From Omnitrophica bacterium RIFCSPHIGHO2_02_FULL_46_20 (GTDB lineage: Bacteria; Omnitrophota; Gorgyraeia; 2-01-FULL-45-10), in contig MHFG01000082.1 in the NCBI GenBank assembly GCA_001804065.1, positions 1 through 46,646 on the forward strand: DNA of 46,646 bases. The letters are read 5' to 3'. Made by a program: the position numbers and the translations under genes. The notes under the pieces are model-generated. The model worked only from the letters and a program-made list of their open reading frames with translations. It had not been told where the DNA came from and did no database searches. This document shows, piece after piece, positions 5,327 to 45,322 of the stretch. The stretch's first letter is position 1. Every line of letters starts with the position of its first letter.

Positions 5327-6696
5327 TACTTGAGAAGAAGAATATACACTTTGTTGGTGTTGGCGGCATAGGGATGAGCGGCCTTGCCTTCATATTATTG
5401 AAGATGGGTTATAATGTTTCCGGATCAGACCTTAAATCGAATAATCTCACTGAAAAGTTGGAAAAAATAGGAGGCAAGATATCCGTAGGGCATAATACCC
5501 GCCACCTACCGCCCGAAGCAGAGGTTCTGGTATATTCATCGTCCATAAATAACGCAAACCCGGAAATCATTGAGGCGCGCAAACGAAATATCACAATAGT
5601 CAAAAGGGCCCAAGTTTTGGGCGAGATATTGAATAAGAAAAAGGGGATAGCTGTAACCGGGACACATGGCAAAACCACCACTACTTCGCTCATCTCTGTT
5701 ATGCTTGAGGATTGTTTTCTTGATCCAACGGTGATAATAGGGGGCGAGGTAGATCTGTTCGGCGGTAACGCAAAGTCAGGTTCTGGTGAATACGTGGTAG
5801 CCGAGGCGGATGAGAGCGACGGCTCTTTTCTCTATTTAAAACCTCTCTACTCTGTCATAATGAATATCGAGATAGAGCATGTGGATTATTATAAAACTCT
5901 CGATGACGCCATAGATTCATATTCGGCCTTCGCGAATAACTTAAAGAAAACGGGAACACTATTTTATAATTGCGAGGACGAAAACATAAAAAAAATGCTC
6001 ATCCGTTTTAACGGTAAGGGAGAAAGTTTCGGTTTTTCTAGACAGGCAGATATATGCCCTTATGACATCAAGCTGAACGGATTCCGTTCGTCATTCCAGT
6101 GCGTCTACAAAAACGAGATTATTGGAAGAGTATTTCTTAAGGTTCCGGGAAGGTATAATATCCTGAACAGCCTCGCGGCAATTCTCGTCGGATTTAAAAT
6201 AGGGCTTACATTTGAAAATATAACGCGTTCAATAGCGGATTTCAGCGGTACGAAGCGGCGTTTCCATCTAATGGCGGATGTCGACGGAGTCATGCTTATT
6301 GATGACTATGCCCACCACCCGACGGAGATACGCGCTGTTCTTGATGCCTGCCGCAACTGGAAGAACCGGAGGCTGATAGTGGTATTCCAGCCGCACAGGT
6401 ATACGCGGATGAAATTTATGGCAGATGAATTCGGCGGATGCTTTAAGGGCGCGGATAAACTCATATTAACAGACATATACGCGGCGGGCGAGGATCCGAT
6501 AGAGGGAGTCTCTGTAAAAAATATTTATGACAAAGTCAAAAAACACGGTATTAATGACGTTACGATGATGAATAAAGAAGGTGTCGCCGAATATGTAATG
6601 GCATTAAAGAAGCGCGGTGACATGATATTGGTGCTGGGCGCAGGCGACATAAAAGAGGTCACAAATGAATTATCCGAAAGGCTTAATAAAAGGTAA
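5323..6696 (+). CDS. murC: UDP-MurNAc--L-alanine ligase MurC
   Basis: GVGGIGMSGLA, GTHGKTTTTS P-loop, DDYAHHPTE. ATGA overlap with murG. Confidence 0.9.
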   Translation: MILEKKNIHFVGVGGIGMSGLAFILLKMGYNVSGSDLKSNNLTEKLEKIGGKISVGHNTRHLPPEAEVLVYSSSINNANPEIIEARKRNITIVKRAQVLGEILNKKKGIAVTGTHGKTTTTSLISVMLEDCFLDPTVIIGGEVDLFGGNAKSGSGEYVVAEADESDGSFLYLKPLYSVIMNIEIEHVDYYKTLDDAIDSYSAFANNLKKTGTLFYNCEDENIKKMLIRFNGKGESFGFSRQADICPYDIKLNGFRSSFQCVYKNEIIGRVFLKVPGRYNILNSLAAILVGFKIGLTFENITRSIADFSGTKRRFHLMADVDGVMLIDDYAHHPTEIRAVLDACRNWKNRRLIVVFQPHRYTRMKFMADEFGGCFKGADKLILTDIYAAGEDPIEGVSVKNIYDKVKKHGINDVTMMNKEGVAEYVMALKKRGDMILVLGAGDIKEVTNELSERLNKR

Positions 6697-8613: not shown

Positions 8614-9410
8614 TGACAAGGCATAAAAAATTTAAAAAGATGCAGCTGCCGAAAGCGTTTACGGGCGCCAAAGAATTTATCCTGCAAAGGGTAGCCGGTA
8701 TGATAGTTTTGGTAGTATTCATAATCTTTTCATGGGTCCTTATAACGGCGTTCCTCGAGAGGTCCGATTATTTCATGTTAAGATCCGTGGAGGCAAGAGG
8801 CGCTCCCGAGATAAGCCTGATATCTATAAGAAGCGATCTCTTAAGGCATTATAAGGGTAATAATATATTTAAGATAAATCTTACGGCAATCGCTAAGTCC
8901 CTGGAACTGCGGCACCCGGATGCTAAGGATATTATCGTAAATAGAGCGCTTCCGGACAAACTATTAGTTGAATTAAATTTTCGCAGTCCTGTCGCAATTT
9001 TGAGTAATGGTCTTTCATTTCCGATAGATAGAGAAGGCGTCATACTTGTCAGCAGGGATCCTGCGCGGCTGGGCGGCCTTCCCGTAATAAAGGGAGTAAA
9101 CCCGAAATATGCGGGTAAATTACACAAGAAAAACGAATCAAAAAATTTAGAAGCGGCGTTGAAGCTTCTCGATGAAATTAAAAAGGCCAGATTTCTTGAT
9201 AAGTACGGCGTGCGCACACTTGACGCAAGCGACATTAAAAGCCTGTCATTCGATCTAGGCGAAGACGGGCCTATGATCATAATAGGTTACGAGAATCTAA
9301 AAGAGCGGCTCTCGGTTTTAAGAGACACGCTAAGGGATCCGCGCCTCGTTCTTGATAAAATAAACTATATTGATATAAGATTTAAAGACGCGGCTATAAG
9401 CCCAAAATGA
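8613..9410 (+). CDS. ftsQ: Cell division protein FtsQ (single N-terminal TM plus a POTRA-like periplasmic part)
   Basis: Hydrophobic segment VAGMIVLVVFIIFSWVLITAFL followed by a roughly 200-aa domain. Conserved position between ddl and ftsA. The sequence itself is weakly diagnostic. Confidence 0.7.
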   Translation: MTRHKKFKKMQLPKAFTGAKEFILQRVAGMIVLVVFIIFSWVLITAFLERSDYFMLRSVEARGAPEISLISIRSDLLRHYKGNNIFKINLTAIAKSLELRHPDAKDIIVNRALPDKLLVELNFRSPVAILSNGLSFPIDREGVILVSRDPARLGGLPVIKGVNPKYAGKLHKKNESKNLEAALKLLDEIKKARFLDKYGVRTLDASDIKSLSFDLGEDGPMIIIGYENLKERLSVLRDTLRDPRLVLDKINYIDIRFKDAAISPK

Positions 9411-9465
9411 AACCCCGTATTGTATTCGGGAGAGGTTCCATGTGCAATTGCATAAGGGTTGGCGC
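9407..9465 (+). repeat. 59-nt start-codon-abutting element, unit 1 of a tandem pair
   Basis: ATGAAACCCCGTATTGTATTCGGGAGAGGTTCCATGTGCAATTGCATAAGGGTTGGCGC. Its ATG overlaps the ftsQ TGA. The 20-codon ORF ends in a TGA that overlaps the next unit's ATG. Confidence 0.85.
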
Positions 9466-9524
9466 ATGAAACCCCGCATTGCATTCAGGAGAGGTTCCAT
9501 GTGCAATTGTATAAGTGTTGGCAC
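9466..9524 (+). repeat. 59-nt start-codon-abutting element, unit 2 of a tandem pair
   Basis: 53/59 positions identical to unit 1 (hand count). The 20-codon ORF ends in TGA 9526-9528, overlapping the ftsA ATG at 9525. Confidence 0.85.
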
Positions 9525-40514: not shown

Positions 40515-42104
40515 ATGCCATACAAGGTTCTCATAAGCGATTCGCTTTCTAAAGAAGCGGTGGACATCTTAGAAAAAGAGAAAGACTTAAAGATTGACGT
40601 AAATACTAAGCTTACGCCGGATAATTTAAAGAAAGTCATAAAAGATTATGACGCGTTATTAGTCCGCTCAAGCACTAAGGTTACGAAGGATGTTATAAAC
40701 GCGGCGGATAGATTGAAAATAGTAGGCAGGGCCGGCGTGGGCTTGGATAATGTTGACGTAGATGCTGCTTCAAAAAAAGGCATCATAGTCGTAAATACGC
40801 CGGGTGGAAATACGATCTCAACCGCAGAGCATACATTCTCGATGATGCTCGCGCTTTCAAGAAGCATACCGCAGGCGGACATATCCATGAAGAAAGGCGA
40901 GTGGGAGCGAAAAAAATTCGTGGGAGTAGAACTTTACGGTAAGACTCTCGGCGTCGTGGGATTAGGGCGGATCGGAACCGAGGTAGCCAAAAGGGCGTTA
41001 AGTTTTGAAATGAGGGTCGTTGCTTACGACCCATACCTTTCATTTGAAAAGGCAAAAGCGCTTGGCATAGAATCCGTGGATTTACAGAGCCTTCTCAAGG
41101 CGTCAGATTACATAACGGTACACACGCCGCTGACTGATGCGACAAAACACATAATGTCAGACAAAGAATTTGAAATTATGAAAAAAGGCGCGCGGATAAT
41201 AAACTGCGCGCGCGGAGGCATAATAGATGAGGCCGCGCTGGTTAGGGCGATAGAATCAGGCAAGGTCGCCGGCGCGGCGCTAGATGTATACGAAGACGAG
41301 CCGCCGTCAAAGTCTTCGAAGCTTTTGAAGCTTGACAAAGTTGTTCTCACCCCGCACCTCGGCGCGTCCACAAAAGAGGCGCAGGTGAATGTTGCGGTAG
41401 ACATCGCCAACACTGTCCGCGATATCCTTTTAGGCCGCTGCGTGAGGAACGCGGTTAACATGCCTTGCGTTGATCCGGAAGTTTTTAAAGTAATAAAACC
41501 TTACCTTAAGCTTTCGGAAAATATAGGTTCGATCATTACGCAGATAGTCGAAGGGCATATAAAAAAGGTAAAGATCAAATATGTGGGCGATATATTAAAA
41601 TACGACCTGTCTCCTTTTACGGTATCGATAATGAAAGGTATCCTTACCCCTATATTACAAGAGACGGTCAATTTTGTAAATTCTTTAGTAATAGCGAAAG
41701 ACCGGGGGATTGAGGTAGTTGAATCAAAGACCGCGCAGATCCAGGATTTTGCGAGCCTGATTATTGTCGAGGCCGAAACGGATAAAGCCAAGAGTTCTGT
41801 CGCGGGGACTCTGTTTACTAAGGGCGATCCCAGAATAGTGAAGATCAATGAGTTCTGGGTGGACTGCGCGCCCGAAGGCAACATGCTCACTGTTTTTAAT
41901 AAGGATGTGCCGGGAATCATCGGCGCGATCGGGACGATATTCGGCAAGAATGATATAAATATAGCGAGCGTCTCATTCGGAAGAGACGTTAAAGGCGGCA
42001 ATGCGGTTAGTGTCTGGAATATTGATAGCGATGCGCCTAAGAAGGTCCTGGATGAAATCAGAAGAGCAAAAAATATTCAGGAAGTGAAGTTAGTTAAGTT
42101 GTAA
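40515..42104 (+). CDS. serA: D-3-phosphoglycerate dehydrogenase, long form with a C-terminal ACT domain
   Basis: GVVGLGRIGTEVA NAD motif, NCARGG, TPHLGAST. 529 aa with an ASB/ACT tail. Confidence 0.9.
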   Translation: MPYKVLISDSLSKEAVDILEKEKDLKIDVNTKLTPDNLKKVIKDYDALLVRSSTKVTKDVINAADRLKIVGRAGVGLDNVDVDAASKKGIIVVNTPGGNTISTAEHTFSMMLALSRSIPQADISMKKGEWERKKFVGVELYGKTLGVVGLGRIGTEVAKRALSFEMRVVAYDPYLSFEKAKALGIESVDLQSLLKASDYITVHTPLTDATKHIMSDKEFEIMKKGARIINCARGGIIDEAALVRAIESGKVAGAALDVYEDEPPSKSSKLLKLDKVVLTPHLGASTKEAQVNVAVDIANTVRDILLGRCVRNAVNMPCVDPEVFKVIKPYLKLSENIGSIITQIVEGHIKKVKIKYVGDILKYDLSPFTVSIMKGILTPILQETVNFVNSLVIAKDRGIEVVESKTAQIQDFASLIIVEAETDKAKSSVAGTLFTKGDPRIVKINEFWVDCAPEGNMLTVFNKDVPGIIGAIGTIFGKNDINIASVSFGRDVKGGNAVSVWNIDSDAPKKVLDEIRRAKNIQEVKLVKL

Positions 42105-42120
42105 GAAAAAAAGGCAAGGT

Positions 42121-42179
42121 ATGAAACTTCGTATTGCACTTAAGGATAAGTTCCATGTGCAATCGTATGAGGTAGGCAC
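42121..42179 (+). repeat. 59-nt start-codon-abutting element, divergent copy
   Basis: ATGAAACTTCGTATTGCACTTAAGGATAAGTTCCATGTGCAATCGTATGAGGTAGGCAC. Roughly three-quarters identical to the other copies, with two compensating 1-nt indels. It ends exactly at the ATG at 42180. Confidence 0.75.
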
Positions 42180-43418
42180 ATGAAAAAACAAAATAAAATT
42201 TACATACTCGATGTAACAAATAGGGATGGCGTGCAGACATCTAGGCTTGGGCTGGCGAAACTGCAGAAGACGATGATAAATATTTACCTTAACGAGATGG
42301 GCGTTCACCAGTCCGAGTTCGGCTTCCCTGTTACGCATCATGAAACCAATTATCTGAATGCGAACTTAGAACTTGCAAAGATAGGCGTCTTAAAGCCCAT
42401 AGTATTGAGCGGCTGGATAAGAGCGATAAAAGATGATGTTGAGAAGGCGTGCAAGATGACAAAAGTAGAGAATCTCAACCTTTCGATATCTACATCCGAA
42501 CAGATGATAAGCGGCAAATTCCAAGGGAAATATACGAAAGAGGATGTCATAAGAGAGATGGCCGAGGCCGTGCATACAGCGCGTAAGCGCGGAATAAAAC
42601 TTGTCGGTGTCAACGCGGAAGACGCTTCAAGGACCCATCTAGACTATCTTATTAAGTTCGCAAGGGCCGCTAAAAAAGCAGGAGCGGACAGAATACGTTA
42701 TTGCGACACGCTTGGCTACGACGATCCTTTCACTATATATGAAAGAATAAAGATACTGGCAGAGGAAATCAAATTACCGATAGAGCTGCACTGTCACAAC
42801 GACCTCGGAATGGTCGTTGCTTGTTCTGTTGCCGGCGCTAAAGCGGCCATGGACGCGGGAGTTGACGCTTACATAAATACTACTGTGAACGGCATGGGCG
42901 AGCGAGCTGGCAATGCGGATCTTGTAAGCATTATACTGGCGATAAAATACGCCAGCGGTTTCCATGACAAATTAGCGCTGGATGAAAAGATCAAGCTTTC
43001 CTGCGCGTGGAAGATAGCGAAATACGCCTCGTACGCTTTTGGCGTGCCAATACCAATAAACCAGCCGGGTGTCGGCGCAAACGCGTTCGCGCATGAATCA
43101 GGGATACATGCCGACGGCGCATTAAAGGATAGGAGAAACTACGAGCTTTATGATTTTGAGGAGCTCGGCAGGGGCGAGCCCGAAATAGTAGAAACCGGAA
43201 GGCAGATTACCGCCGGAGAATATAGCGGTATAAGGGGCTTCAGAAACGTTTATGACAAGCTCGAGATAAAATTCGAGAACGAGAAGGATGCTACGAAGAT
43301 ATTAGAGCTTGTCCGCTACGCAAATGTCCATACTCACCAGCCGCTGACCGAGGATGAATTGAGATTCATCGCTAAATATCCGGAAATAGCGCGTAAAATA
43401 TTCACTATGACCGCATAA
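42180..43418 (+). CDS. HMGL-like (DRE-TIM) family enzyme: homocitrate/citramalate/2-isopropylmalate synthase-like, without a LeuA regulatory domain
   Basis: LDVTNRDGVQT (variant of the TLRDGEQ motif), HCHNDLGMVVA, NGMGERAGNADL, HESGIHADG. Confidence 0.6.
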   Translation: MKKQNKIYILDVTNRDGVQTSRLGLAKLQKTMINIYLNEMGVHQSEFGFPVTHHETNYLNANLELAKIGVLKPIVLSGWIRAIKDDVEKACKMTKVENLNLSISTSEQMISGKFQGKYTKEDVIREMAEAVHTARKRGIKLVGVNAEDASRTHLDYLIKFARAAKKAGADRIRYCDTLGYDDPFTIYERIKILAEEIKLPIELHCHNDLGMVVACSVAGAKAAMDAGVDAYINTTVNGMGERAGNADLVSIILAIKYASGFHDKLALDEKIKLSCAWKIAKYASYAFGVPIPINQPGVGANAFAHESGIHADGALKDRRNYELYDFEELGRGEPEIVETGRQITAGEYSGIRGFRNVYDKLEIKFENEKDATKILELVRYANVHTHQPLTEDELRFIAKYPEIARKIFTMTA

Positions 43419-43441: not shown

Positions 43442-43500
43442 ATGAAACCTCGTATTGTATTTGGGAGAGGTTCCATGCGCAATTGTAGGAGGGTTGGCAC
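43442..43500 (+). repeat. 59-nt start-codon-abutting element, copy 4
   Basis: ATGAAACCTCGTATTGTATTTGGGAGAGGTTCCATGCGCAATTGTAGGAGGGTTGGCAC. 52/59 positions identical to unit 1 (hand count). It ends exactly at the ATG at 43501. Confidence 0.85.

Positions 43501-45322
<1,822 letters not shown>

Follow-up and report, generated by a model that had tools for sequence, protein, structure and literature searches.

A probable miniature mobile element at gene starts in one Omnitrophota family, defined by covarying hairpins and a stop/start-coupled reading frame

The 46,646-nt contig MHFG01000082.1 of Omnitrophica bacterium RIFCSPHIGHO2_02_FULL_46_20 (phylum Omnitrophota; assembly GCA_001804065.1), analysed here over its whole length and termed the window, carries four copies (at 9407, 9466, 42121 and 43442) of a short repeated element lying 5' of open reading frames (ORFs). 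A first-pass annotation of the copy at 42121, which immediately precedes an HMGL-like gene, had proposed that selection acts on base-paired structure and on the frame of a stop/start overlap rather than on a micropeptide. We report that these copies belong to a repeat family whose insertion is documented by empty sites, whose two hairpins are supported by covariation, whose lengths are biased towards 3n+2, and whose internal ORF bears no coding signature. These properties, together with enrichment next to genes of ORFs that end in ATGA, support the proposed target of selection. We consider it probable that the repeat is a miniature non-autonomous mobile element that lands at gene starts and is tolerated there by virtue of its hairpins and coupled frame, not of its peptide.

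To delimit the family, the 1.31-Mb, 92-contig assembly of the source genome (G000) was searched with nhmmer, yielding 32 full copies plus several 3' half-copies directly 5' of full copies, and a covariance model built from the 32 was used to search further genomes. Copies were found in G001, G016, G029, G061, G019, G063 and six more genomes, all of the same family, for a collection of 83 (32 in G000 and 51 in the twelve others). When 401 genomes from the whole phylum were searched for the exact pattern, the element was confined to one Omnitrophota family, with no match in 386 genomes outside it; within the window, the 16-nt head of the element has four matching sites against 0.36 expected. In 57 of the 83 cases the copy abuts a same-strand ORF of at least 80 amino acids (aa), and tandem arrays occur on G000 contigs C1, C5, C9 and C82 as well as in G019 and G061. 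When each copy is cut at a conserved TTCC, the sizes of its 5' and 3' parts distinguish type A (59 nt, 33+29), comprising most G000 copies and one in G019; type B (68 nt, 43+28), found in G001, G016, G061, G029 and others, with a 71-nt variant in G029; and type C (59 nt, 34+28, with a different loop 1), found in G031, G006, G027, G063 and G034. The two ends of the element (AAACCTCGC... and ...GGCATATG) do not form a pair of inverted repeats, such repeats occurring instead as the internal hairpins; the terminal inverted repeats that mark a classical miniature inverted-repeat transposable element derived from a DDE transposon are therefore absent.

Comparison of filled and empty sites documents insertion. 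Orthologues of the HMGL-like gene are present in 38 of the 39 other genomes of the family (39 of 40 with the source genome), and the element is absent from the junction of this gene with its 5' neighbor serA in all 29 orthologous loci examined. Several of these empty sites read ...ATGAAAAAACAAAATAAA, and those of G019, G007, G006 and G009 read ...ATGAAAAAACA...; the ATG at 42180 corresponds to the start codon used by the orthologues, relatives' proteins starting MKKQNK or MAKKQNK. At the empty sites of the orthologues, ATGAAA or ATGAAG is immediately preceded by a run rich in purines; the purine-rich AAGGCAAGG 5' of the first ATG of the inserted copy therefore probably represents the native ribosome-binding site of the HMGL-like gene, displaced by the insertion. 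The nusG gene of G061 reads ATG GCG AAA (68 nt ending GGCATATG) AAA CAG TGG, and four congeners (G035, G028, G008 and G021) are empty at this place, with ATGGCGAAGCAGTGG or a near variant and a ATGGCGAAGCAG start; judged from this pair of states, the target is an AAA codon at or just after the start and not strictly ATGAAA. Codons at the 5' end of the element are mostly ATG, and also include GTG, TTG, GCG, GAG, AAG, ATA and GGG; seven of nine gene-adjacent copies that have no start codon at this end have an in-frame start one to four codons upstream. The (G)AAA found at both ends fits equally a 3-4 nt target duplication or a copy borne by the element.

Two further loci bear on where copies settle. 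Upstream of nusG in G000 (G000:C72:1907-2030) a GTG-initiated copy is followed by the perfect palindrome TTTTTAACGCGGATATCCGCGTTAAAAA and then by the native ATGGCGAAGCAG start, and is not fused to nusG. One orthologous gene (57% aa identity, conserved upstream flank) carries type B in G001 (C103:12616-12686) and type C in G063 (C165:642-705) at the same start, which could mean either that a hot spot has been hit repeatedly or that gene conversion has replaced one type by the locally dominant one.

The copy that led to the family has the sequence ATGAAACTTCGTATTGCACTTAAGGATAAGTTCCATGTGCAATCGTATGAGGTAGGCAC and is followed directly by the gene's ATG (Table 1). Its length, its 20-codon ORF and the overlap of the ORF's TGA (42181-42183) with the ATG at 42180, forming ATGA, were confirmed as first described. 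Its identity to other copies, described as about three-quarters, measured 55-76% against the other G000 copies in a crude structural alignment, and so holds for the closest copies and not for the rest. The two compensating 1-nt indels attributed to it are real as offsetting differences, since relative to type A its 5' part has one base more and its 3' part one base fewer (34+28 versus 33+29 in the local type-A copies); the polarity, however, is reversed. Its last 33 nt (GTTCC...ATG) are identical to those of one type-B copy in G061, its C-terminal frame FHVQSYEVGT matches the FHVQLYEVGT of types B and C, and type A reads that stretch as GS(I/M)CNCKGVG. Because the register, 3' 33 nt and frame of the copy at 42121 recur in types B and C of other genera, the abundant local type A is best read from these alignments as the shifted, derived form, the copy at 42121 retaining the older family-wide register and belonging to an older or other sub-lineage. 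Two 60-nt copies (34+29; C5:5145 and C9:10056) look intermediate between the two registers.

Both hairpins are supported by covariation. In the G000 copies stem 2 is 99% paired, one pair occurring as A-U 18, G-C 10 and G-U 2 times, and stem 1 is 90% paired, with its pair 8/30 present as C-G 23, U-A 7 and U-G 1 times and two other pairs bearing eight mismatches each. In 43 type-B copies taken from other genomes as an independent set, pairing extends to 97.3% of cells and double changes occur at 9 of 13 pairs, as compared with 2.6 +/- 0.9 in shuffles (none of 500 reaching 9) and at most 4 in slid controls. Stem 2 is 96-99% paired in both alignments, and six of its seven pairs show compensatory changes in type B. 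For all types together we used an anchor-based structural alignment of 82 distinct rows, since MAFFT misplaced the 5' arm on account of a second AAACC in type B; an average-product-corrected (APC) G-test on this alignment gave the top two of 1830 column-pair ranks to stem pairs 8/39 and 47/74, in that order, the following ranks being held by loop-1 columns that merely separate types. Pair 8/39 is C-G in 56 copies, T-A in 23 and otherwise in 3. Three copies that have no terminal ATG retain stem 2 by matched changes (CTGATGC/GCATCAG, CTAATGC/GCATTAG and CTTATGC/GCATAAG), and copies away from genes still keep their stems.

At 42121 itself, stem 2 (CATGTGC/GCACATG) is perfect, pairs the gene's ATG as first described, and is present in the predicted minimum-energy folds of both RNA and DNA. 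The substitution of T-A for C-G claimed for stem 1 (AACTT/AAGTT) was also borne out, this being the T-A version of the very pair that ranks first of 1830; the stem as a whole is marginal in this copy. A third helix was considered and rejected. In type A, ATTGCAT/ATGCAAT (element positions 13-19 and 36-42) would compete with stem 2 and appears in the minimum-energy fold of the consensus; it is 94.5% pairable, yet 176 of 500 shuffles reach that value, covariation does not support it, and type B lacks it. The corresponding segments of the copy at 42121 are window 42133-42139 and about 42157-42163.

The first-pass annotation had regarded a length of exactly 59 nt as conserved. Length is in fact biased towards 3n+2, not fixed: 63 of 83 copies fall into three such classes, of 59 nt (27 copies), 68 nt (34) and 71 nt (2), and the remaining 20 are 3n (60 nt, 5 copies; 69 nt, 8; 63 nt, 1) or 3n+1 (58 nt, 4; 61 nt, 2), some of them directly before genes. 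Lengths of 3n+2 characterize 47 of 57 copies next to genes and 16 of the 26 others, or 10 of 20 when a nested six-copy lineage is set aside (Fisher p=0.007, for copies that are not independent). If in-frame starts as far as four codons upstream are counted, 43 of the 56 gene-adjacent copies have an ORF that begins at or just before the element, spans the whole of it and ends in ATGA, versus 12 of 26 others (Fisher p=0.011, with the same dependence among copies). Two 69-nt copies form in-frame fusions with the gene, and three gene-adjacent copies are 3n+1. One of the motifs GGAG, GAGG, AGGA or GGGG, resembling a Shine-Dalgarno (SD) sequence, lies within 18 nt upstream of the terminal ATG in 52 of 83 copies.

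Nucleotide conservation of the element might instead be attributed to a functional micropeptide encoded by the 20-codon ORF, and an ATG-initiated stop-free ORF is indeed present in 43 of 83 copies, with a C-terminal FH(V/M)Q(L/S)YEVG(T/I) recurring in types B, C and the copy at 42121. Type A, however, uses another frame and is yet the most prolific type in G000, and in many copies the start codon is missing or a stop comes early. Diversity at codon positions 1, 2 and 3, computed over unpaired positions, is 0.20, 0.21 and 0.22 in type A and 0.21, 0.27 and 0.24 in type B, with no periodicity and no third-position excess. Ratios of nonsynonymous to synonymous changes among single-base codon differences from the consensus (2.5 versus 3.4 possible in type A; 3.1 versus 4.1 in type B) are near the mutational expectation. 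The absence of periodicity, the near-mutational ratios and the use of two frames together argue against a selected peptide, and the conserved 3' nucleotides are fully explained by the stem arms, the SD-like motif and the ATG. We regard the micropeptide as largely refuted and its existence as very improbable.

From these properties we infer a course of events in which translation would survive the insertion. The element inserts, co-oriented with the gene, next to an AAA codon at the gene start or within the first few codons, and its end, ...GGCAYATG, followed by AAA, recreates an ATG-AAA start. The displaced native start codon and ribosome-binding site would then open a stop-free ORF through the element, which, given a 3n+2 length, would end at a UGA overlapping the new AUG (AUGA). 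Ribosomes would terminate there and reinitiate on the gene, rendering the insertion nearly harmless, and in many copies a purine-rich SD-like motif within the loop of hairpin 2 would contribute to this. The hairpins may serve mobility as folded single-stranded DNA, or mask the new AUG and so leave expression governed by the native start, or both.

A number of observations weigh against this interpretation. Coupling is not universal: in 13 of the 56 gene-adjacent copies no ORF runs through the whole element to an ATGA, an in-frame TAA occurs early in one propagated 69-nt lineage, and 31 of 83 copies carry no SD-like motif. At 42121, stem 1 is weak (five A/U-rich pairs) and lies outside the predicted minimum-energy fold, and stem 1 pair 9/38 is an uncompensated C.A in eight G000 copies. 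Most copies inherit the length of their source, and when propagated lineages rather than copies are counted the bias towards 3n+2 is only about 4:3:2, and weak. No transposase is tied to the element, the three PF01797 matches of G000 (contigs C64, C37 and C3) all lying off the copy-bearing contigs.

Several of these points bear on the proposal that no selection follows insertion, and that a few recently active sources simply passed on their length, stems and frame, the compensation at 42121 being coincidental. The 59 nt of this copy are indeed inherited, as its 34+28 register is that of type C; besides the length shared by most copies of a type and the lineage-level count, the near equality of G.U and A.C in stem 2 looks like neutral decay. 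Compensatory double changes, seen at 9 of 13 pairs and spread over several types and genomes, indicate, on the contrary, that at least the source copies are structurally selected, and copies beside genes more often have 3n+2 lengths and whole-element ORFs. An orthologous insertion in G027 (C22:8802-8863) and G063 (C128:1981-2043) is also at odds with it: the element is 84% identical between the two genomes and the flanking 300 nt are 70% and 63% identical (binomial p about 0.001). This greater conservation points to a constraint that acts on the inserted copy, the simplest candidate being the region in which translation of the gene is now initiated. We hold inheritance without selection to be improbable.

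The same orthologous copy is more conserved than the flanking coding DNA especially in its 3' half, where 25 of 28 positions are retained and stem 2 is kept, stem 1 having decayed in G027. This would suit a cis-acting mRNA leader in which hairpin 2 sequesters the AUG and flanks the SD motif, translation of the gene requiring translation of the upstream ORF or melting of the hairpin, and the stems being selected mainly at the RNA level. In favor of such a leader, the start codon invariably forms part of stem 2, whose loop holds the SD-like motif, and solo 3' modules lie behind promoter-like boxes (for example G000:C21:15360-15417). Copies, however, precede unrelated genes and form tandem arrays; non-gene copies and the three ATG-less copies still keep stem 2; and a scan of the whole window with Rfam 15 at gathering thresholds gave no matches. 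Sense-strand mismatches in stem 2 comprise 10 G.U versus 8 A.C, so that G.U is not commoner, unlike what RNA-level wobble tolerance would give; those in stem 1 comprise 22 A.C versus 6 G.U and are dominated by two G000 sub-lineages. These counts, without the wobble tolerance expected of an RNA-only constraint, at most lean against a purely RNA-level constraint, and constraints at the RNA and DNA levels may both act. A regulatory leader is thus a possible explanation, though one we hold to be doubtful next to that of a tolerated mobile element.

DNA-level folding also admits an explanation of how start codons are found. In stem 1 an internal TT is matched to the AA of the target, and in stem 2 an internal CAT to the terminal ATG. 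By analogy with the pairing of guide and cleavage sites at IS200/IS605 ends, which this arrangement resembles, the hairpins might in folded single-stranded DNA constitute the targeting device of a programmable mini-transposon, mobilized by an HUH enzyme, that lands on start codons and rebuilds them; the CTA/TAG, CTG/CAG and CTT/AAG variants would then be re-programmed guides. We judge this an unlikely elaboration. Genes for Y1 transposases (PF01797), whose ORFs in this family are roughly 160-340 aa and often present in several copies per genome, occur in 34 of the 40 family genomes irrespective of the element, without co-distribution; G016, which is only 73% complete, has 11 copies of the element and no PF01797 match. 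A larger autonomous element with the same ends was looked for, and the search returned only solo half-modules and a palindromic repeat of about 150 nt containing a nested copy.

The solo half-modules lie at G000:C21:15360-15417(-), C85:1868-1894(-), C59:19041-19097(-) and C5:12980-13019(+). Three are 3' halves, consisting of GGTTCC, stem 2, the SD-like motif and ATG behind promoter-like boxes (TTGACA-N17-TATACT on C21), and that on C5 is a type-B 5' half; because solo 5' and 3' halves both occur, the element looks modular. The palindromic repeat (…aaaaatttaaattc (59 nt) aaagaagttaaattttt…) encloses six copies beginning CTGAAACTT, at G000:C74:5355-5416(-), C74:6667-6728(+), C5:12638, C9:4908, C16:143 and C92:2371. 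On C74 two inverted nested copies flank a 283-aa ORF (5585-6436, minus strand), situated between opp-like permease and binding-protein genes, in an arrangement resembling a composite element.

Features of the window are collected in Table 1. The serA stop codon lies 16 nt 5' of the element at 42121. In the ORFs 3' of the copy at 43442, two tandem 39-nt units that are GC-rich and 82% identical occupy window 43945-44022 (CCGCCGCCCGCGCCCAGGGCTGTTTCCGCGCCGCGATCA).

Table 1. Element copies, their parts and adjacent genes in the window
Feature	Position	Strand	Remarks
Two tandem type-A copies (9407-9465, 9466-9524)	9407..9524	+	before 356-aa ORF
serA (phosphoglycerate dehydrogenase)	40515..42104	+	5' neighbor; TIGR01327, 701.6 bits, above cut-off
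Purine-rich AAGGCAAGG	42111..42119	+	5' of the element's first ATG; from sequence
Element copy, 59 nt	42121..42179	+	34+28 register as in types B/C; nhmmer E=7e-17; covariance-model match 71.7 bits
20-codon ORF MKLRIALKDKFHVQSYEVGT + TGA	42121..42183	+	by translation
Stem 1, 5' arm AACTT	42125..42129	+	first two bases within the AAA repeated at both element ends
Stem 1, 3' arm AAGTT	42148..42152	+	pairs with 42125-42129
Stem 2, 5' arm CATGTGC	42154..42160	+	in RNA and DNA minimum-energy folds
Shine-Dalgarno-like GAGG	42169..42172	+	in loop of stem 2, 7 nt 5' of gene ATG; from sequence
Stem 2, 3' arm GCACATG	42176..42182	+	contains start codon of HMGL-like gene
HMGL-like gene, 412 aa, isopropylmalate/homocitrate-synthase kind	42180..43418	+	best NCBIfam matches TIGR02660 (3.7e-83) and NF002085 (1.4e-78), below curated cut-offs
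Type-A copy	43442..43500	+	before 178-aa ORF

Small structured repeats with some of these attributes have been recognized in other bacteria. REP/BIME sequences with RAYT, and the IS200/IS605-derived miniature elements (PATEs), are small, non-autonomous and hairpin-defined, have no terminal inverted repeats and insert by short specific sequences. The present element resembles them in its conserved hairpins near the ends and in the occurrence of Y1 HUH genes in the genome, and differs in that no Y1 gene is flanked by or correlated with it; REPs, moreover, have neither an ORF nor a start-codon architecture. Rickettsia palindromic elements (RPEs), Correia, ERIC and BOX are likewise small structured repeats that survive in or near genes without destroying expression, and BOX elements can add ORF starts. 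They differ in being translated within the host protein or in acting as promoters, terminators or RNase sites, and we know of none of the four described as relying on an ATGA stop/start overlap.

The closest known analogue, by likeness of description, is the mycobacterial interspersed repetitive unit (MIRU). In a review of translational coupling (PMC12548453, citing Supply et al. 1997, Mol Microbiol 26:991), MIRUs are apparently mobile repeats that insert at start codons and carry an internal ORF coupled to the gene at -4 nt, a coupling thought to minimize harm. As there described, they share with the present element the form of short interspersed repeats, often tandem and co-oriented with the gene, whose ORF stop overlaps the start as ATGA. 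Measured against that same account, the present element is distinguished by two covariation-supported hairpins that reach both of its ends, by insertion sites that follow an AAA codon and may lie as many as four codons into the coding sequence, and by bringing its own ATG and often an SD-like motif. MIRUs belong to Actinomycetota, a phylum unrelated to Omnitrophota, and common descent is unlikely because the present element is found only in one Omnitrophota family.

The family would therefore represent a second, phylogenetically independent example of the MIRU strategy, in which a mobile repeat settles at start codons as a coupled upstream ORF. New here are the family-wide types, the covariation support, the reversed polarity of the register shift and the AAA-codon target with its empty sites; covariation evidence that hairpins, and not the peptide, are selected is not among the properties of MIRUs reported in that review (PMC12548453). 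For annotation of Omnitrophota genomes, copies create spurious ORFs of 20-23 codons and may cause start codons to be miscalled. Among the copies, lengths of 3n+2, 3n and 3n+1, with and without an internal SD-like motif, form a natural series that offers a ready test set for the rules of termination-reinitiation.

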